Shown here in pieces: positions 11,501 through 63,131 of a DNA stretch of 64,000 nt. This DNA is from a virus. The position numbers and the translations under genes are program-made. Within the stretch, counting starts at the first letter, position 1. Every line of letters starts with the position of its first letter. Under the pieces are notes generated by a model, which saw only the letters and a program-made list of their open reading frames with translations, did not search any database and was not told where the DNA came from. Where the stretch lies: IMG/VR virus record IMGVR_UViG_3300012001_000006, positions 1 to 64,000 of that record; one strand, 5' to 3'.

Positions 11501-11518
11501 TAAGTCACTATTGACTTA
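11501..11518. promoter_or_regulatory. perfect palindromic box
   Basis: TAAGTCA-CTAT-TGACTTA directly upstream of the nuclease RBS. Confidence 0.8.
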
Positions 11519-24384: not shown

Positions 24385-24444
24385 TGTTACTCACTATTGA
24401 CTGGATTCGCAAGTCAGTAGTGACTTATCCTGTCAGGTTGCCTA
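24385..24444 (-). promoter_or_regulatory. sigma70-type promoter overlapped by two palindromic boxes
   Basis: Minus strand TTGCGA-17 bp-TAACAT; boxes at 24387-24404 and 24410-24427. Confidence 0.7.
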
Positions 24445-24445
24445 A

Positions 24446-26596
24446 CTACTTCAAGATCAGGGCGCGAAGTTCCTTCATGACGACGCCAGGCAGGTCTTCC
24501 ACGTTGTTCAACGTCAAGTGTTTCGGGTAGAAACGCCGCACTTCGTCGGACTGGATGCCGATACCGATCACGTTGACACCGGCCCTTGTGATGTCCGCGA
24601 TCGTTTTCTTCAGGTGCGGCGCCAGGGTATGTGTTTCGCCGGCCGCGTGTGGGGCGCCATCCGACAGCACCATCATGATCTTGCCTGTCTCGCGACGATT
24701 CATCAGGCGGCGGGCCGCAATCTCGACGCACTCGCCATCGACGTTGTTGTGCAAGATGTTCGAGTTGGGCAGCCAACCGAACCGCGCCTTCACGTCCGTC
24801 GTCATGCGCTCGTCGAAACCTTTCAGAATTGGCATATAGAGCGCTTCGACGCGGCTGAATCTGCGACCGAGTTTGGCGGTCTCGGCCGACAGCGTGGCGT
24901 GATCAGCGCAGCCTTCGCCGGTCGTGAAGCAAATCACTTCGCACTTGATGCCAATCCGCTCCAGTACGCTGGCTAACGCGTACGCCGCCTGGGTCGCGGT
25001 GTCGATCTTTTGACCATCCATCGAGCCGGACGCATCGACCACTAACTCGACCGCCACGTCCTTGCTGGTCGCTTCATGCTTGCGGCGAAACACCCGATCG
25101 TCACCGACTGCAAGGCGTGACAGGTTTGCAGCATGGATGCGACCGCTGCGATGCCCTGCCGAGTACATCGACAGCGAACGGGCCGCGATGGCGCGCTCCA
25201 GGTCTTTCTGAAGTGGCGCAACCATGTGATCGACTTTCGACTGCAAGCGCGTCAGCATGGCAGAGTCGTATTCGCGACCGACCTTCAACGGCTCAACGAC
25301 ATCCTTGTCCTTCGTGTAAATCAGGTAGTCGGATTCTTTCGCCGCATCGCAAGCGGCAGACGAAATCAACGTGGACATGGTTTCGTCAAAGTCGCGCTTA
25401 GTCTCCTTGTCGATCGCCGACCAGTTGATGCCGGCAGCTTTCGTGATGTCCGTTTCTGACTCGGCAGGCTTGCTGGCGCCGTCAGACGCTTCAGGCATAC
25501 CGTCACCTTCTTCATCACCTTCGTCGTCACCGCCACCGCCAGACAGGTCGCCATCTTCTTCGTCAGGCATTGGTTCGTCGTCGCCTTCTTCACCCTCACC
25601 CTCTTCCTCTTCTTCGCCCTCTTCCTCATCGGCTTCAGGGTCAGCTTCGGGGTCAGCTTCATCCTCTTCAGGGTCGGCCGCTGGATCAGCTTCAGGGTCT
25701 TCCTCGTCGGTTGGTGCCGGCGTTGGGTCTGCCTCTGGATCTTCTTCGGGCGGTTCGGTTGCGGCAGGGTCTTTTTCGCCTGGTGTCGGTTCGCCCTCTT
25801 CTTCCTCTTCGTCGTCTTTAGGCTTCGGTTCGGCTTTCGCTTTCTTTGGCTTGGGCGACTTGGCGGGCTTCTCTTTCGACTTCTCACCCTTGCCACCGCC
25901 TTCACCTGCGTCACCCGATGGTGACGGCGGTGTCGGGGCCGGCGGTGCCGGTGGGGCTGGCTTAGCAGCCTTCAGGCGCTTCGTAACCTCTTCGGCGATC
26001 TCAAGGCAGTCACGCGTTGATGTCGCGCCCTCGATGCGATCCGCCAGGTCTTTGATTTGGTCATAGACTGGCGCGATGATGTGCATCTTGTCCTTCATGT
26101 ATTCTTTGAACACTTGCTGACCCGCCATTGCGCGAATCAGCGGCACCATCAAGGCGCCGATCACCGTGTCGGTGTCGCCTTTAGCGACCGCTTCCGCAAC
26201 GCGTGGCGTGGTGTATTTGTCGAGGAAGAACTTCCCCGTATTGGCAAGGTTCAGACCAGAACCTTGAAACCGCTGCGCCATGCAACGCTCGATGCGGCTG
26301 TCTTCAATCAGGTTGAGCATTTGGCCCGAACCCGATTTGATCGCTGCATCCATCACGTTGAATTCGGTGAAGAGTATGTGAGCAACTTCGTGATCCAAGA
26401 AACCTTGAATGGCGTCGATCAGTTCGTCGGTAGCGTTATCGGGTAGATACGGCAGGTTGACCAAGAAAGGACGACCAGCGCTGTCAGCTTTCACAAAGGC
26501 GCTTACTCCGCGCTGAGTGACTTGGATTCCCTTACCGGCGAGCATCTGCGTCAATTTGACGACTGATTCACGCATTACATATACACGTTCGTTCAT
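24446..26596 (-). CDS. CobT-like vWA domain protein with HExxH N-terminal domain and long acidic linker
   Basis: DHEVAH, NLIEDSRIE, MIDAS DASGSM and LSDGAP motifs; RBS AGGAG before ATG 26596. Confidence 0.88.
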   Translation of the reverse strand: MNERVYVMRESVVKLTQMLAGKGIQVTQRGVSAFVKADSAGRPFLVNLPYLPDNATDELIDAIQGFLDHEVAHILFTEFNVMDAAIKSGSGQMLNLIEDSRIERCMAQRFQGSGLNLANTGKFFLDKYTTPRVAEAVAKGDTDTVIGALMVPLIRAMAGQQVFKEYMKDKMHIIAPVYDQIKDLADRIEGATSTRDCLEIAEEVTKRLKAAKPAPPAPPAPTPPSPSGDAGEGGGKGEKSKEKPAKSPKPKKAKAEPKPKDDEEEEEGEPTPGEKDPAATEPPEEDPEADPTPAPTDEEDPEADPAADPEEDEADPEADPEADEEEGEEEEEGEGEEGDDEPMPDEEDGDLSGGGGDDEGDEEGDGMPEASDGASKPAESETDITKAAGINWSAIDKETKRDFDETMSTLISSAACDAAKESDYLIYTKDKDVVEPLKVGREYDSAMLTRLQSKVDHMVAPLQKDLERAIAARSLSMYSAGHRSGRIHAANLSRLAVGDDRVFRRKHEATSKDVAVELVVDASGSMDGQKIDTATQAAYALASVLERIGIKCEVICFTTGEGCADHATLSAETAKLGRRFSRVEALYMPILKGFDERMTTDVKARFGWLPNSNILHNNVDGECVEIAARRLMNRRETGKIMMVLSDGAPHAAGETHTLAPHLKKTIADITRAGVNVIGIGIQSDEVRRFYPKHLTLNNVEDLPGVVMKELRALILK

Positions 26597-26700
26597 AGCT
26601 TCTATCTCCTCGTTCATCACTCAGCATTGAGTGAACATTTACAATGATAGAGAAGCTCGTCAGGAAGCGCAACGACTATCTGAAAGAATCCTGAACGTAA

Positions 26701-26727
26701 AAAAAGCGGACGTTTATGTCCGCTTTG
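26701..26727 (-). terminator. intrinsic terminator
   Basis: AAAGCGGAC-ATAAAC-GTCCGC-TTTTTT on the minus strand, after the 61-aa ORF. Confidence 0.7.
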
Positions 26728-26745
26728 TCGTTGGCGCTGACGCCC

Positions 26746-26931
26746 TCAAAGCCGGAGCAGCCCATGTTTCGTTCCGGTCGTATTGACCAGGATGATGTTG
26801 CCTAATTTCGGATGATTAGCTCTATATACGAGGGACTCCCCCAAGTCTAACTGATCTTGAACTGTCGACTCCTCCAACGTGTCGACAAATGATTGCAGGC
26901 TAAGAACGGACGTTTTTGCTGAATGTGGCAT
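26746..26931 (-). CDS. small hypothetical protein divergent from the repressor
   Basis: 61 aa with GGAGAG RBS, its own TATAAT plus box (26974-26995) and a terminator. Confidence 0.65.
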   Translation of the reverse strand: MPHSAKTSVLSLQSFVDTLEESTVQDQLDLGESLVYRANHPKLGNIILVNTTGTKHGLLRL

Positions 26932-27184
26932 TTATTCTCTCCGAGTTGATTACTGTTATGTGCGCTACACCACATTATAGCTCACCGCTAACTTACTTTT
27001 ATTGTGGAAATTGTTAATCTTCGTTTCTTCTTTACTGCATAAATCGGGACTGAATTGGGGCTGCTTTTTAAATCTTATTAAAACGATAACGGTAAGTCAC
27101 TAAGAAGTAATAGTTTATGAACTATAATATAAACGTGAGATGAATCACTTACCTGCCGGTCGTCCGGCGCTGAATGGAGAAAAC

Positions 27185-27625
27185 ATGACTAAAGAACCCA
27201 AAGCCTCAAAGGCGACGAAGAGTCCGACCGTTGCCCAGTATCTTGAAATGCAATTCAATCTCTGCGGCAAGTCGCAGATAGAGATCGCCACCGAATGCGG
27301 CTTTCCAAAGCCAAACATTCTCTCGATGATCAAGCAGGGCAAAACAAAACTACCCATCTCGAAGATCGCCGTAATGGCGAAATCGCTCGGTGTTGATCCG
27401 CTGCATCTGTTCAAATTATGTATGCAGGAATACGAGCCGGCGAATTGGGAGGCAATCCAAGAAACAATCTTGAAGCAGCCCGTCATCACCGCTAACGAGA
27501 TGGAGATCATTCGGGTGATTCGTAAATCAAACGTGATCAATCCGAAGCTGCGCACGAATGAGGAACGCATTCGTTTGCTCGACGTGATTGCGACGTTGAA
27601 GCCTGAAAACGCCACCAACGACTGA
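27185..27625 (+). CDS. XRE/CI-like HTH repressor
   Basis: KSQIEIATECGFPKPNILSMIKQGKTKLP...MAKSLGVDP HTH; GGAG RBS; divergent from the early operon. Confidence 0.85.
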   Translation: MTKEPKASKATKSPTVAQYLEMQFNLCGKSQIEIATECGFPKPNILSMIKQGKTKLPISKIAVMAKSLGVDPLHLFKLCMQEYEPANWEAIQETILKQPVITANEMEIIRVIRKSNVINPKLRTNEERIRLLDVIATLKPENATND

Positions 27626-27640
27626 TCCATTCTCACCCTC

Positions 27641-27670
27641 AAAAAAGGCACCTTCGGGTGCCTTTTTATT
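27641..27670. terminator. bidirectional intrinsic terminator after the repressor
   Basis: AAAAAAGGCACC-TTCG-GGTGCCTTTTT. Confidence 0.85.
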
Positions 27671-27833
27671 GTCGTTTTATTGGACGAGAACAACTATGCT
27701 CTTGTGTAACATTGTGCGCAAGTGTATAAAAATACACTTGACAGATTAAGTGCGAAGTGATTCGACTACCTGTAATATATGACTTCATGCTGTCGCTACA
27801 TGGTGAAAATGATATTTTGTACACTATGCGGCT

Positions 27834-28082
27834 ATGAAAAGTCCAAAGTCCGTGCGCCGGCAGGTTACAAATATCATTCCATTTGGCTTGCGTATGCAGC
27901 CCGATCTGAGAAAGTTGATTGAAAAGGCGAGTGAGGATACGGGTCGGTCGCTCAATGCGGAAATTTGCATCCGACTCCACCAAACCTTTATGGCAGACAA
28001 CAAGGCCGATGAATTGCTGGCGGTGGCAAGGGCAATTCATGCGGATATCCAGACCCTAAAGACCGTGCGCGCGCCAAAGTAA
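27834..28082 (+). CDS. Arc/Mnt-family ribbon-helix-helix DNA-binding protein
   Basis: PFGLRMQPDLRKLIEKASEDTGRSLNAEICIRL. Confidence 0.88.
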   Translation: MKSPKSVRRQVTNIIPFGLRMQPDLRKLIEKASEDTGRSLNAEICIRLHQTFMADNKADELLAVARAIHADIQTLKTVRAPK

Positions 28083-28154
28083 TCCGCTGAGCCTGGCGAG
28101 ACACTCTCAAAACTGCTATTCTCTCGACGACTTCACCATGAAGCTATCGATGGA

Positions 28155-29276
28155 GTGAATCGCATCGCGCGCGTCTCAAAAATAGCAGTAAGCAAAGACG
28201 GCTATATCCGAATGCGGAAAGCTGCATTCAAGAAGTTGGCATTTCAACAGTTGGTGGCGAATGCTGATCCGGAATTGCTTAGTGAATTGATCGGTCAGGC
28301 GATCCCGTCCCGCATTGCAGGTTTTTGCGAATGGGTGAGCGACACAGCGCCGGTGGTCAGCGTCGGTTTTGATTGGCACATCAATGACGAACCAAACCGC
28401 GTCGCCATCTTGTCTAATGCGCCTCGCACCAATCTGATGATGGTCAACGCGAAGGGCTACGATTACGGGCCGCAGCGCACGTCGCGGTTCCTACTAACTT
28501 GGATTAATACCTTTCTCCGCCCGCGATTATCGCCTCTCGCGCGGCAAGATATTGTGTCGAACAGTAGCGGATGGCGCGGCGGCTACCTGTCCATTCTGGA
28601 CAACTTGACGACAGAAATGGCGCTCTACAAACAGGTTGAGCGGCGGGTGCGCGCGCTTGGCTTTGACTACACCGCGTACGGCATTCGGATGGCCTTCCCT
28701 ATCATCCGGCCAACTGTGTGGACGCACAACAATTACCCCGAAGAGTGGCAGCGGCGTTACGCAGAAAAGGATTACGTCGATATCGACCCTACCGTTCAGC
28801 GCGCGATCGAGTCGCCGCTGCCGATGGTTTGGTCAGACGCATTATTTGAGGATCAGCCAGAATTCTGGCGTGATGCGCAAAGGCACGGCTTGCGCTTTGG
28901 GTGGGCGCAGTCGTCAAGGGATGCCACCGGCTCGGTCGGTCTTCTCAGCGTGGCGCGACGCGATGGACCGATCACGGACGCCGAACTGCAAGAAAAGCAG
29001 CACAAGTTGTCGATGCTCGTCCAAATCACACACGCCGGCATGTCCAGGATTATGGCGCCCGCACTTGCGCCAGGGCTGCGCGCGACCGTAACCTCTGGAG
29101 AGCGCGAGATTTTACGCTGGACGGCCGAGGGGAAAACATCAGCCGAGATTGCGAGCATTTTGGAATTACCGGAGCGCACCGTCACGTTTCGACGCACCGC
29201 CGTAATTAGAAAGTTAGGCGCCGTGAATATCACCCAAGCGACGGTGATGGCGTTCTCTCTCGGGATGATTTGCTAG
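28155..29276 (+). CDS. RsaM(DUF4902)-like domain fused to an AHL-binding LuxR-family regulator (SolR/CepR-like)
   Basis: N-terminal SKDGYIRM..DPELLSEL..AGFCEW..VSVGFDW..RTNLM; C-terminal NYPEEWQRRY..DIDPTV..MVWS..GLRFG plus HTH EREILRWTAEGKTSAEIA. Confidence 0.88.
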   Translation: MNRIARVSKIAVSKDGYIRMRKAAFKKLAFQQLVANADPELLSELIGQAIPSRIAGFCEWVSDTAPVVSVGFDWHINDEPNRVAILSNAPRTNLMMVNAKGYDYGPQRTSRFLLTWINTFLRPRLSPLARQDIVSNSSGWRGGYLSILDNLTTEMALYKQVERRVRALGFDYTAYGIRMAFPIIRPTVWTHNNYPEEWQRRYAEKDYVDIDPTVQRAIESPLPMVWSDALFEDQPEFWRDAQRHGLRFGWAQSSRDATGSVGLLSVARRDGPITDAELQEKQHKLSMLVQITHAGMSRIMAPALAPGLRATVTSGEREILRWTAEGKTSAEIASILELPERTVTFRRTAVIRKLGAVNITQATVMAFSLGMIC

Positions 29277-29284
29277 AAAAATAA

Positions 29285-29302
29285 TAAGTCATTGATGACT
29301 AT
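29285..29302. promoter_or_regulatory. palindromic box upstream of the excisionase
   Basis: TAAGTCA-TTGA-TGACTAT. Confidence 0.75.
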
Positions 29303-29360
29303 CATTTGCGCCAATTATTGTATAAGATAATGCCATTACTTACCGAGTGGCGAGATAGCT

Positions 29361-29705
29361 GTGAGAACCCTAGACATTGATGAATGCGCCGAATTCCTGA
29401 AGGTTGATCGCTCGACCGCATTGCGACTGGCCGGCGGTGGCGAGCTACCTGGCGCCAAGATCGGACGCGCGTGGGTGTTCCTGCTGGACGACTTGGTGGA
29501 GTATCTGCGCACACAGGTGCGCTCTCAGGCGCGGCAGCGTCAAGCGGAAGCCGACACCGATGGCGCGCTGAACAAGGCGGTCGTCAATAACGCCTCGTTC
29601 GTGATGTCACCCATGCGCCGGCGGCCGAAGAATGCGGCCCCCGACCTGTCAGGCTACCCTGACCTTACCAGAGCTTCCCCGCCAAATTTGAGCCGCGCAG
29701 GTTAG
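29361..29705 (+). CDS. excisionase-like HTH_17 protein
   Basis: TLDIDECAEFLKVDRSTALRLAGGGELPGAKIGRAWVF; convergent with and overlapping the integrase 3' end. Confidence 0.85.
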   Translation: MRTLDIDECAEFLKVDRSTALRLAGGGELPGAKIGRAWVFLLDDLVEYLRTQVRSQARQRQAEADTDGALNKAVVNNASFVMSPMRRRPKNAAPDLSGYPDLTRASPPNLSRAG

Positions 29706-30828
29706 CGTAACGCGCCAACATTCTGGTCGAACTGTGGCCGGTGATCTTCATAATCTCTGTGTCCGACAATGTGGTGCGTTCGAAGAAGCGGGATGTCGCC
29801 TCATGACGCAGATCGTGGAAGGTTAGATCGGGACAGCCCGCCGTCTCGAAGACGCGCGAATACTGCTGCGACATCGCCGCGCTCAATCGCTCCAACGTCT
29901 GCCGCTCCACGCCCCCATCCCACCAAGGGAACAGCCTCTCTTTGTTGAACTTGAAGTCTTCCATGCCGCGCGTGCCGGCGCCCACATGCTCCAGGTACTC
30001 GCGCAGTTTGGCAACCGCGACCGTCGACAACGGCACCTGTCGTTTGCTGCCGTTCTTTGTTTTCTCCAGGAAGATCGTACACAATTCAAAGTTCAGTTGA
30101 TCGAGCGTGAGCGTGTACATTTCCCGCATTCTCATCGCCGTCTCCAGCGCCAGGTCAAACAGCATCTCGATGGCCGCCTGGTAGCGCATCTCAAGCGCCC
30201 TCTGCTTGTCGGCCGACTTCGCGCCCGCCATCACCGCGCGAATCGCCGGCTCTTCCAGCACACCTACGCGGCGATCGCGCGACACGTCTTCGCGCCTGGT
30301 GTGATGTGGGTTGTTCTTGGCCGCCTCGAACGATTCCTTGTCGGTGTATTGCGCGTAGCGTTTTGGCAGTTGACGAATTGGATTGAGCGCGAGCGCGACG
30401 ATGTTTTTATTGGACGCCCAATCGAAGCATCGAGCGAGCGCGCCGACGTGATGTCGAATCGTTGATGGCGCGATATTCAACTCGATCTTCATACTGCGAA
30501 TCCACTTCTCAACCCACACGTAGTTGATCAACTTGATCGGCGTCGCGCCGATTCTGGCATACGCCACGTTGAGCAGGTTCACGTCCGATTGCGGTATCGT
30601 GTTGTGCGCGAGATAGCCGCGAATCACTTCGGCCAAGATGGTGTAGACGGCGGTTCGGGTGTCCAGCTCCGGCGGCACGATGCCGTTATCGAGCAGCGCT
30701 TCGATCTTCGCGATGTAGGCGTCGCCTTCTTCTTCGTTGTTGGTGTAGTAGCGCCACGGCCGCGGCAGCAATTTTGCGCGCTTGACGACGTACTCCCACG
30801 AGTCGCCTTTCTTCCGTTTCATAGCCAT
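29665..30828 (-). CDS. int: tyrosine integrase
   Basis: Complete catalytic set: ETAMR, KTKNG, FHDLRHE, TGH, RYANL; adjacent to the tRNA fragment. Confidence 0.93.
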   Translation of the reverse strand: MAMKRKKGDSWEYVVKRAKLLPRPWRYYTNNEEEGDAYIAKIEALLDNGIVPPELDTRTAVYTILAEVIRGYLAHNTIPQSDVNLLNVAYARIGATPIKLINYVWVEKWIRSMKIELNIAPSTIRHHVGALARCFDWASNKNIVALALNPIRQLPKRYAQYTDKESFEAAKNNPHHTRREDVSRDRRVGVLEEPAIRAVMAGAKSADKQRALEMRYQAAIEMLFDLALETAMRMREMYTLTLDQLNFELCTIFLEKTKNGSKRQVPLSTVAVAKLREYLEHVGAGTRGMEDFKFNKERLFPWWDGGVERQTLERLSAAMSQQYSRVFETAGCPDLTFHDLRHEATSRFFERTTLSDTEIMKITGHSSTRMLARYANLRGSNLAGKLW

Positions 30829-30945
30829 CTTTTTCCTCCCGTTGACGGCCAACAGGCCGAAGTGCGGGTGGACTGTCCACCCGCGATGGGTGGAATCATA
30901 CCCTTTTAGGCACTTTTAGGCGACTCTACGTTGGCGACGGGCAAG

Positions 30946-30969
30946 AAAAAGCCCACTAGGAAGTGGGCT
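30946..30969 (-). terminator. terminator downstream of the tRNA-Cys 3' fragment
   Basis: AGCCCACT-TCCT-AGTGGGCT-TTTT on the minus strand. Confidence 0.7.
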
Positions 30970-30996
30970 AAGTCTTTGATTCTATTACCTAAAAAC

Positions 30997-31047
30997 TGGA
31001 GGCGGGGGTCGGGATCGAACCGGCGTAAACGGCTTTGCAGGCCGCTG
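30997..31047 (-). other. attP core: 3' portion of tRNA-Cys(GCA)
   Basis: Minus strand CAGCGGCCTGCAAAGCCGTTTACGCCGGTTCGATCCCGACCCCCGCCTCCA gives anticodon arm, T-arm and CCA. The 5' acceptor strand and D-arm are absent. Flanked by a perfect 15-bp inverted repeat. Confidence 0.88.
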
Positions 31048-31115
31048 TCGTTTGTTTAGAATCAAAGACTTGCGTGAGTCGTCCACCTTATCGTCCACCC
31101 GACACTTTTTCAACT

Positions 31116-31763
31116 TCAGCGCGACAGGTAGGTCTCGATGGACTTGCGATCCGCCTCTTCGTCGATGCGAATCAGGTTCGCGTAGCCATTTTCCAGTTCG
31201 GCCCACACCATCCCGAACGCCTCGAAGATTGTGAAGTCGAGGCCGGTCAGTCGGGCCAGACGCCCACCTTCGTTTTGCCAGAACACGTACGGGAAGCGAA
31301 GCTGCTGCGGACAGGCCAGGATGCACTTCTTAGCCAGCGCTGAGAGCGCCTTGGTGCGCTCCATGCGGGAGACCATCGTCCAGGTCACGCTGGCGACCTC
31401 TGACGCGTCCATGCCGGTCTCCAGGGCGAACAGAATCGCCGCAGCTTTCGGTTGCTGCGCGTGTCGCAGTCCATTACGCAGCTCACCCGCTGTCAGGTAG
31501 ACGCGCGATGGCGAGCGGTAGGTCAGCATGGGAGGGCTGGCAAATTCGTTGCGCGCGACCGCCGCTTGTACTTCTCGCATTGCGAGGTCGATGGCTGATT
31601 CTGCTTGATCGCGCTGGCCGGCTTCTGACATGCGGGCCACGAACGCGTAGATGGATGCGGTGCTGATCTTGTCGGCCGGTCGAGACCAGAGCGGCGACTG
31701 TGAGAGCGGCGATACGCCGAGAATTGTGGAAATCTTACCGATGTCCTTGAGCGCTGGTGTCAT
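31116..31763 (-). CDS. degenerate tyrosine-recombinase-fold protein
   Basis: YLTAGEL...AILFALETGMDASEVASVTW resembles box I with Asp at the catalytic Arg; no HxxR. Confidence 0.6.
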   Translation of the reverse strand: MTPALKDIGKISTILGVSPLSQSPLWSRPADKISTASIYAFVARMSEAGQRDQAESAIDLAMREVQAAVARNEFASPPMLTYRSPSRVYLTAGELRNGLRHAQQPKAAAILFALETGMDASEVASVTWTMVSRMERTKALSALAKKCILACPQQLRFPYVFWQNEGGRLARLTGLDFTIFEAFGMVWAELENGYANLIRIDEEADRKSIETYLSR

Positions 31764-50296: not shown

Positions 50297-50314
50297 TAAG
50301 TCATGACTGACTTA
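50297..50314. promoter_or_regulatory. perfect palindromic box
   Basis: TAAGTCA-TGAC-TGACTTA in the gap before the fibre gene. Confidence 0.8.
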
Positions 50315-63113: not shown

Positions 63114-63131
63114 TAAGTCAGGTCTGACTTA
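63114..63131. promoter_or_regulatory. perfect palindromic box
   Basis: TAAGTCA-GGTC-TGACTTA just past the major tail stop codon. Confidence 0.8.

Follow-up and report, generated by a model that had tools for sequence, protein, structure and literature searches.

An RsaM-LuxR fusion beside the excision genes of a temperate soil phage, a candidate sensor of host acyl-homoserine lactone

Introduction

Free-standing RsaM proteins are negative regulators of acyl-homoserine lactone (AHL) output (PMC10710839; bioRxiv 10.64898/2026.07.23.740290), and a July 2026 preprint still calls their mechanism unknown (bioRxiv 10.64898/2026.07.23.740290). Eight arrangements of rsaM have been described, of which type 8 is a chimera of an N-terminal RsaM domain, an AHL-binding domain and a helix-turn-helix (HTH) domain, present in two Massilia species (Venturi et al. 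2023, Microbiology 169:001417, PMC10710839). As described there, the chimera has no luxI nearby, is called a LuxR solo and serves as Rosetta-stone evidence for contact between RsaM and LuxR. Here we analyzed a 64,000-nt stretch of viral DNA (positions 1 to 64,000 of IMG/VR record IMGVR_UViG_3300012001_000006; hereinafter the window), in which a gene of this architecture occupies 28155..29276 on the plus strand, next to excision and integration genes. Like type 8, its product has RsaM at the N-terminus, an AHL-binding domain in the middle and a HTH at the C-terminus, with no luxI near. Like the free-standing RsaM, TofM, AbaM and BcRsaM, it contains a homologous domain linked to a receptor of the SolR/CepR/AbaR type; unlike them, the domain is covalently joined to that receptor instead of being encoded by a separate gene beside luxI.

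Phage LuxR proteins bind host AHL (Silpe & Bassler 2019, PMC6456758). In Aeromonas phages, an xre-luxR operon together with AHL activates a counter-oriented small open reading frame (ORF), whereupon cI is inactivated and lysis follows (Silpe et al. 2023, PMC10432266). By analogy, these xre-luxR plus small-ORF modules appear to be the closest precedent for the locus in the window. Like the Aeromonas phages ARM81ld and Apop, the window phage is a temperate phage with an AHL-receptor homologue near a XRE-family gene and no luxI. The ARM81ld and Apop receptors, however, have no RsaM domain and need a XRE partner, and their phages are linear and plasmid-like, whereas the window phage has an Arc-like upstream partner, integrates at a tRNA gene and offers only a candidate for the small-ORF target.

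We propose, at a probability of about one half, that the fusion protein most likely serves as a phage-borne regulator that would sense host AHL and carry a tethered RsaM modulator. The fusion architecture and the RsaM-LuxR argument are already in print, and the present case is an extension, not the discovery of a kind. A first-pass annotation, made from the letters of the window alone, had drawn the same argument and taken the fusion to be undescribed; the latter is not supported in view of the published chimera (PMC10710839), while the phage context stands, as a phage-borne RsaM-LuxR fusion was not found, by title and abstract, in the literature searched on RsaM/DUF4902, prophages and quorum sensing. 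New beyond the published chimera are an integrative phage lineage and a distinct fusion clade. New as well are the plug-in-cassette nature of the gene, as judged by comparison, a recognition helix specific to the fusion, a variant without the ligand-binding domain, and the finding that both inspectable contexts are temperate phages.

Domain architecture of the fusion gene

The fusion gene is a single unbroken ORF of 373 aa that starts with GTG. The first-pass annotation had recognized the uninterrupted ORF and assigned its N-terminus to RsaM/DUF4902. Both are borne out: Pfam places DUF4902 (PF16245) at residues 13–120 (28191..28514; profile positions 1–109 of 118), exactly the boundaries proposed, with 93.3 bits against a cut-off of 25 and E 1.3e-26. 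A six-frame search of the record gives the same domain 96 bits. A flexible linker of approximately residues 121–138 (28515..28568) follows, then the autoinducer-binding domain at residues 156–294 (28620..29036; Autoind_bind, 126 bits against a cut-off of 23, E 1.1e-36) and the GerE/LuxR-type HTH at residues 313–366 (29091..29252; 53.7 bits against a cut-off of 23.5, E 1.6e-14), all on the plus strand.

Sequence searches against solved structures give the same division. Specifically, residues 13–114 resemble BCAM1869, a crystallised RsaM protein from Burkholderia cenocepacia (4o2h; E 4e-15), while residues 142–372 match RhlR (the best match, E 2.8e-50), QscR and SdiA. In a direct comparison with 4o2h, the RsaM domain reaches E 7.3e-16 as a single sequence, and a profile built from four fusion N-domains reaches 1.9e-20. 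Residues 13–145 of Burkholderia glumae TofM map to 28191–28562 (31.6% identity, E 3.9e-15), and residues 5–236 of B. glumae TofR map to 28572–29270. Because TofM and TofR map back to back, the gene reads as an almost seamless end-to-end join of a full-length RsaM and a full-length LuxR. The best NCBIfam match of the fusion is SdiA, at 151 bits against an equivalog cut-off of 350, and SdiA identity is ruled out by this wide shortfall.

The absence of luxI, noted earlier for the window, extends to the whole 81,265-bp record: PF00765 has no match there even at E≤1, with a tofI control record positive, and the best hit of TofI in a tblastn search of the record reaches E 0.13 only. As to the trait of neighbouring luxI and luxR, the RsaM domain of the window is joined to a luxR, in a record without luxI.

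GTG 28155 is the sole canonical start codon 5’ of the conserved S13-R19 stretch; one public gene call begins the protein at M20 (354 aa). A six-codon upstream ORF (MKLSME, 28138–28158) ends in a TGA that overlaps the GTG (GTGA), an arrangement that may permit translational coupling to a start codon with a poor ribosome-binding site. An RNA hairpin around the start codon (28112–28189) was considered and dropped, as it is no better than shuffles (z = −0.79).

Integrity of the join and selection on it

Unitigs (Logan) were taken from a 2014 soil metagenome run that is probably the source sample. A 2,847-nt unitig spans 28180–31026 with 0 differences at a depth of approximately 83, and the junction between the RsaM and LuxR parts (approximately 28515–28570) lies inside it. 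Another unitig covers 27000–28209 and overlaps the junction-spanning unitig by the usual 30 nt. The loose end at this overlap (28180–28209) is 18 nt long, presumably a Nextera adapter, and lies 300 nt before the domain junction. The same fusion protein, without change, is encoded by the 81,265-bp Joint Genome Institute contig (373 aa) and by a 57,307-bp ENA contig (from M20, 354 aa). The junction is therefore not an artefact of assembly, the doubt that the first-pass annotation had itself raised about approximately 28500–28580.

Homologues of the whole protein exist. P0002, likewise of 373 aa and encoded on a 201,675-bp contig, shares 52% identity across 369 aligned residues, S13-R19 and the linker region among them, and P0121 (375 aa) is 35% identical; both contain all three Pfam domains in the same order, without stops. 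Because homologues at 35–52% identity keep the architecture and the signature residues, the comparison indicates that the fused form is under purifying selection. We hold the identity of the gene, its integrity and its location on a phage to be close to certain.

Predicted structure, AHL pocket and recognition helix

An AlphaFold2 model was built on a 68-row alignment. The model has a mean predicted local distance difference test score (pLDDT) of 87.1 and a predicted template modelling (TM) score of 0.78, with the N-terminal domain and the receptor part both confident. Residues 18–124 are modelled as a β-sheet plus helices. The pLDDT falls below 50 at residues 128–132 and 134–136, and the linker differs in length among homologues, as seen from alignment indels. 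Because of the low pLDDT and the indels, the RsaM domain looks, in the model, to be tethered by a flexible linker of about 15–20 residues and not rigidly packed.

The receptor part of the model superimposes on QscR (6cbq and 3szt) with a target-normalised TM score of 0.94 and a root-mean-square deviation of 1.6–1.7 Å over 231–233 columns (Foldseek), and on RhlR and SdiA with TM scores of 0.82–0.90. The Foldseek list for the whole model is filled with LuxR matches, none of which gives a superposition of the RsaM domain on 4o2h. Sequence alignment of that domain with BcRsaM matches W60 and W74 to BcRsaM tryptophans and places F72 at the third, the aligned stretch holding only three BcRsaM tryptophans; W116 is a possible fourth but lies outside the reliable alignment. 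Published accounts describe a conserved tryptophan quartet in the hydrophobic core of RsaM (PMC10710839; bioRxiv 10.64898/2026.07.23.740290), which is absent in rare members according to the former. Complex prediction for RsaM residues 1–130 against LuxR residues 136–373 gave a score of 0.01 against a mark of 0.32, a run without controls that speaks neither for nor against binding.

The hallmarks of an AHL pocket are W57, Y61, D70, P71, W85 and G113 in TraR numbering, and those of the HTH are E178, L182 and G188. In the fusion protein, the pocket residues W198, Y202, D211, P212, W226 and G259/G262 are kept, as they are in all four full-length fusion rows of the alignment, and W198, Y202, D211 and W226 align with RhlR positions 68, 72, 81 and 96. 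The HTH residues E316, L320 and G326 are kept as well. These columns are conserved in 58–63 of 63 ordinary LuxR relatives, the L320 column in 52. The earlier description of a full LuxR with AHL-pocket residues and an intact HTH thus holds, with both Pfam domains above their cut-offs.

The recognition helix is different. Position 346 is His in 63/63 ordinary LuxRs, and R, R, R, S and R in the five fusion-family rows. The fusion has R347 where ordinary relatives carry I, V, L or M, and A349 where 55 of the 63 carry Asn. The helix thereby departs from the motif of the SolR/RhlR group (..TVNFH..N..), which is typical of that group and not family-defining. Because the recognition helix differs at 346, 347 and 349, the sequence points to a DNA target distinct from the lux-type boxes recognised by the nearest host receptors. 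Those nearest ordinary receptors are SolR-type proteins at 47–52% identity, one from Noviherbaspirillum and the others from Burkholderiales, from which the host of the phage is probably a betaproteobacterium of the Burkholderiales.

The carrier phage and its integration module

The source record is a linear IMG/VR virus contig of 81,265 bp from soil, estimated to be 77% complete. It encodes a DnaE-type polymerase, a DnaB-like helicase, a ligase, a SbcC-like nuclease, a ribonucleotide reductase and CobS/CobT-like proteins, together with a tape measure protein and a J-like tail fibre; a portal protein, large terminase, scaffold and major head proteins lie past the window, at 64–81 kb. The polymerase is 40–46% identical to those of RHph/RHEph10-group Rhizobium phages, Pseudomonas phage nickie and Stenotrophomonas phages (108–122 kb). 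Almost all genes run leftward, the exception being a plus-strand block at 27140–29705 that includes the fusion gene.

Downstream of the fusion gene lie an excisionase-like HTH_17 protein of 114 aa (29361..29705, plus strand; Pfam E 3.6e-12, PHROG excisionase families) and, convergent with it, a tyrosine integrase of 395 aa (29665..30852, minus strand; Phage_integrase E 1.9e-20, PHROG integrase). A 51-nt segment at 30997..31047 (minus strand) reads by eye as the 3’ part of tRNA-Cys(GCA), with an anticodon stem-loop containing GCA, a T arm with one mismatch, the acceptor 3’ strand and a terminal CCA. No tRNA was called there by ARAGORN or Rfam, as expected of a partial tRNA. Unitigs break precisely at 30997 and 31047, and the depth across the segment climbs from 83 to 113. 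One contig continues past 31047 for 226 nt into non-phage DNA, and its reverse-complemented start pairs perfectly with the acceptor strand. Because of the breaks, the rise in depth and this continuation, the segment is a putative attP core common to a bacterial tRNA gene in the same sample (attB or a prophage junction). The xis-int-attP neighbourhood named by the first-pass annotation is thereby supported, and the integrase, the xis-like gene and the tRNA-like core with its graph branch show that the carrier of the fusion, a tailed soil phage, is temperate and integrates at a tRNA gene. A perfect 15-bp inverted repeat (30970–30984 and 31057–31071) flanks the core; it may comprise sites for the integrase or an accessory factor, or a terminator of the integrase gene.

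Upstream of the fusion gene, an Arc/Mnt-like ribbon-helix-helix protein of 82 aa (27834..28082, plus strand; Pfam Arc E 3e-06, 27.4 bits against a cut-off of 20.4; PHROG Arc-like repressor) forms the first gene of the cassette. It is preceded by a XRE-family (HTH_3) regulator of 161 aa (27140..27625, plus strand; HTH_3 E 0.013, below the cut-off; PHROG regulator/repressor families), presumed to be a candidate prophage repressor or a partner regulator, after which a terminator-like hairpin with an 11-pair stem and a T run was found by consensus scan only (27642..27667, plus strand). Homologues of the XRE protein at 28–34% identity occur in Rhizobium and Klebsiella phages of approximately 110–120 kb. 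Those of the Rhizobium phages occupy a similar position, approximately 6 kb ahead of the polymerase gene; the Klebsiella phages, of approximately 110 kb, are presumably SSU5-like phage-plasmids.

A 520-bp A+T-rich gap separates the XRE gene from the CobT-like gene on the minus strand. It contains an ORF of 61 aa (26746..26931, minus strand) that is transcribed divergently from the XRE gene rather than from the fusion gene and heads the leftward CobT-like, CobS-like and DnaE genes. More speculatively, this ORF is a candidate counter-oriented small ORF or the first early gene. ORFs of 63 aa occupy the same position in two related loci (L007 and L008, below), but have no sequence similarity to it. 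A σ70 scan found 2 sites against 3.6 expected, and no promoter is claimed; Rfam returned just two sub-threshold small-RNA matches on 26400–31400.

The Arc and fusion genes form an accessory cassette

We compared nine IMG/VR loci (L002–L010) whose CobT-like gene is 51–68% identical to that of the window phage and which all span the slot up to the ligase operon. The Arc gene and the fusion are missing from 9/9 of them. The slot is without any module gene in seven. In L008 it holds a XRE homologue (42%), a ParA-like ATPase and a small recombinase, and in L007 a guanylate kinase, an integrase (46%), xis (56%) and XRE (56%), with a gap of only approximately 135 bp between xis and XRE. L007 is part of a complete genome (G001; 105,979 bp, terminal repeats, 100% complete), in which neither DUF4902 (PF16245) nor Autoind_bind (PF03472) has a match anywhere.

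Because relatives have XRE-xis-int without Arc or the fusion, the two genes are, by comparison, an accessory cassette of approximately 1.6 kb inserted between XRE and xis. The first-pass annotation had placed the fusion between the repressor/Arc genes and xis, inside the lysogeny/excision module; the position is correct, while the comparison makes the fusion either an extra input or a moron, and not one of the core components of the switch. With a complete relative for comparison, the locus illustrates that a XRE-xis-int module already in place can take up an AHL receptor in cassette form. Since the content of the slot differs among the nine loci, the lysogeny module of this lineage forms a variable island. 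The lineage appears to swap the slot cassette and thereby switch between virulent, integrative and plasmid-like lifestyles.

A second fusion on a Massilia phage-plasmid

Among Massilia plasmid records, a single one has a DUF4902 match, the circular 87,120-bp 'plasmid unnamed' of Massilia violaceinigra B2 (NZ_CP024609.1). It encodes a 378-aa fusion with DUF4902, Autoind_bind and GerE all over the Pfam cut-offs, which is 22% identical to the fusion of the window (E 4e-13). The annotation of the plasmid includes a N4-gp56 family major capsid protein, a tail fibre, a DUF1983 protein, a family 19 glycoside hydrolase, ParA/ParB and two integrases. Because of its capsid, tail fibre, lysin and ParA/ParB genes, we classify NZ_CP024609.1 from its gene content as a phage-plasmid. 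Its fusion gene lies 615 bp downstream of a HTH_3 gene, itself divergent from a YdaS-like gene; upstream, an ORF of 82 aa runs divergently to the fusion, which is followed by a receiver-domain regulator. A search for luxI in this plasmid was negative. The window Arc-like protein was compared with the 82-aa ORF as a possible counterpart and rejected, as there is no similarity. The plasmid also encodes a PLxRFG protein of 5,555 aa with pyrophosphatase and DNA methylase domains.

Like the window phage, NZ_CP024609.1 combines a three-domain fusion beside a XRE-type switch gene with phage genes and no luxI. It is of an unrelated phage type, however, with a N4-gp56 capsid and ParA/ParB, and is extrachromosomal. 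Compared with this Massilia fusion, the fusion of the window belongs to a separate clade and resides on an integrative tailed phage, and the Massilia protein, unlike it, keeps the His of the recognition helix (read by eye). Both inspectable fusion contexts (2/2) are therefore temperate phages of unrelated kinds in which the gene adjoins a XRE-type switch gene. The word 'phage' occurs 0 times in the article that describes type 8 (PMC10710839), and our results suggest a new reading of the published Massilia chimera, as a phage gene.

Occurrence of RsaM-LuxR fusions

When 1.84 billion cluster representatives were searched exhaustively with HMMER, 6,078 matched; among the best 150 of these, the N-terminal domain is covered only by the cluster of the gene itself, P0121 and P0142. 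Pfam finds DUF4902 in three (P0002, P0121 and P0142) of ten long candidates, and no hidden RsaM domain in any of the seven other long, N-extended LuxRs (P0183, P0149, P0132, P0135, P0178, P0253 and P0122). Word-indexed searches with the RsaM part and for longer proteins returned only the three known fusion clusters. Because such searches missed the Massilia proteins, the census is to be read as at least four clusters. In 50,697 GenBank phage records, there are 9 matches to the LuxR part and none to the RsaM domain; among 72,556 plasmid records, 1 covers ≥80% of the fusion query. Scans of viral, genome and metagenome contigs found no relative, although these used exact-peptide patterns and are weak evidence of absence.

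P0142 (199 aa) is a variant with DUF4902 (E 6.4e-22) and GerE (E 3e-10) and without Autoind_bind, a single sequence from one 7.6-kb public contig. Over the parts common to both, it is 47% identical to the fusion of the window, and at position 346 it carries R as the clade of that fusion does. In a quick tree, the fusion of the window clades with P0002/P0270 and probably also with P0142 (SH-aLRT 99). As P0142 and the Massilia row are on very long branches, which fit one or several origins, RsaM-LuxR fusions may have arisen more than once.

One could go further and regard such fusions as a speciality of phages, which would repeatedly have captured rsaM-luxR from their hosts and fused them into a two-input receptor of private specificity that times induction or excision, the published Massilia chimera being itself phage-borne. 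We put this forward tentatively and think it doubtful. If it is true, the fusion and the P0142-type variant would be the first tractable system for RsaM acting on LuxR-type proteins in cis.

Proposed function and alternatives

According to the role we favour, the fusion would act as a phage-borne LuxR solo. It would bind AHL made by the host, then fold and dimerise. With a recognition helix unlike that of ordinary lux-box binders, it would act on phage promoters, and host density would thereby feed into the lysogeny/lysis or excision decision. The tethered RsaM domain would modulate the receptor to which it is fused, as an attenuator that fixes the threshold or as a second input in need of relief. 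Such a role in cis fits the idea that free-standing RsaM acts on LuxR through direct contact between the proteins. For a test of direct action of RsaM on LuxR, a protein that naturally joins RsaM to a receptor is the simplest system, and the window phage adds a second, integrative lineage to the short list of AHL-receptor phages.

Several observations weigh against a host-AHL-sensing role in the phage switch. The XRE protein is presumed to be a repressor, as its Pfam match is below the cut-off and its homologues occur in phages of unclear lifestyle. Motif scans of the record identified no operator for the fusion protein, and no convincing lux-box-like site was found near the cassette; of eight CTG-N10-CAG sites in the record (6–7 of 10 palindromic pairs), the only site close to the cassette (27260) falls within the XRE gene. 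An abundant palindrome (TAAGTCA-N4-TGACTTA, described in the last section) was considered as the fusion's own operator and rejected, because relatives without the fusion carry it. The cassette is also unlike the Aeromonas modules in that the Arc gene is co-oriented, not divergent, and the divergent small ORF is not conserved in sequence. GTG 28155 lacks a well-spaced Shine-Dalgarno sequence, and the start codon is uncertain. Finally, P0142, without a ligand-binding domain, suggests that at least one lineage can do without AHL sensing.

The alternative that survives best, though we judge it unlikely, is that the cassette is a lysogenic-conversion moron that manipulates host quorum sensing, with the RsaM domain damping AHL synthesis or host LuxR, or with the receptor part titrating AHL or forming inactive heterodimers. 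The cassette is indeed an add-on that relatives do without, and it lies downstream of and co-oriented with the XRE gene, as rexAB of phage lambda lie downstream of and co-oriented with a repressor-type gene. Also consistent with a moron, free-standing RsaM proteins negatively regulate AHL output (PMC10710839; bioRxiv 10.64898/2026.07.23.740290), and a phage anti-activator of LasR, Aqs1, is known (PMC13043044). However, a pure titrator or anti-activator needs no DNA-binding domain, while the fusion clade conserves a full one with its own helix signature. The change in the helix speaks against competition for the lux boxes of the host and makes jamming by occupancy of those boxes less likely. 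In addition, TofM has been proposed to act on luxI mRNA (bioRxiv 10.64898/2026.07.23.740290), and any effect of a tethered copy on the host would be speculative.

Less probable still, the RsaM domain could be the working input or a dimerisation domain that keeps two HTH domains together, so that RsaM plus HTH would form the core of the protein and the AHL pocket would be secondary or vestigial, perhaps with a cue other than AHL. P0142, with DUF4902 and GerE, no Autoind_bind and R346, has the composition expected of such a core, and RsaM has been reported to be dimeric and proposed as a possible sensor (PMC10710839). On the other hand, the four full-length fusion rows keep every pocket hallmark, the ligand-binding domain scores its 126 bits as ordinary receptors do, and P0142, as a lone sequence, is perhaps a functionless deletion derivative.

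That the gene is instead an assembly chimera or a decaying passenger without function, as its origin in a metagenome contig, the break between unitigs at 28180–28209 within its 5’ end and its weak ribosome-binding site might suggest, is very improbable and largely refuted, since the break is an ordinary 30-nt overlap, the junction lies in one 2,847-nt unitig with 0 differences, two assemblies give an identical protein, the homologues that are 52% and 35% identical show an unchanged order of domains and no stops, and the G+C content of the gene (0.566) is that of the record (0.568).

A palindrome repeated across the phage genome

The 18-bp palindrome TAAGTCA-N4-TGACTTA has 20 sites in the window at ≤3 mismatches, against 0.89 expected, a count that 0 of 100 shuffles reach. 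The sites include 11501–11518, 24410–24427, 26978–26995, 29285–29302, 50297–50314 and 63114–63131, and more lie at 64–81 kb. The copy at 29285..29302, found by motif scan with 2 mismatches, lies 9 nt past the stop codon of the fusion gene and before xis. Nearly all copies are intergenic, and in one subclass TATAAT comes next on the minus strand. The palindrome is also present in related phages that have no fusion, from which it is probably a lineage-wide promoter or operator element.

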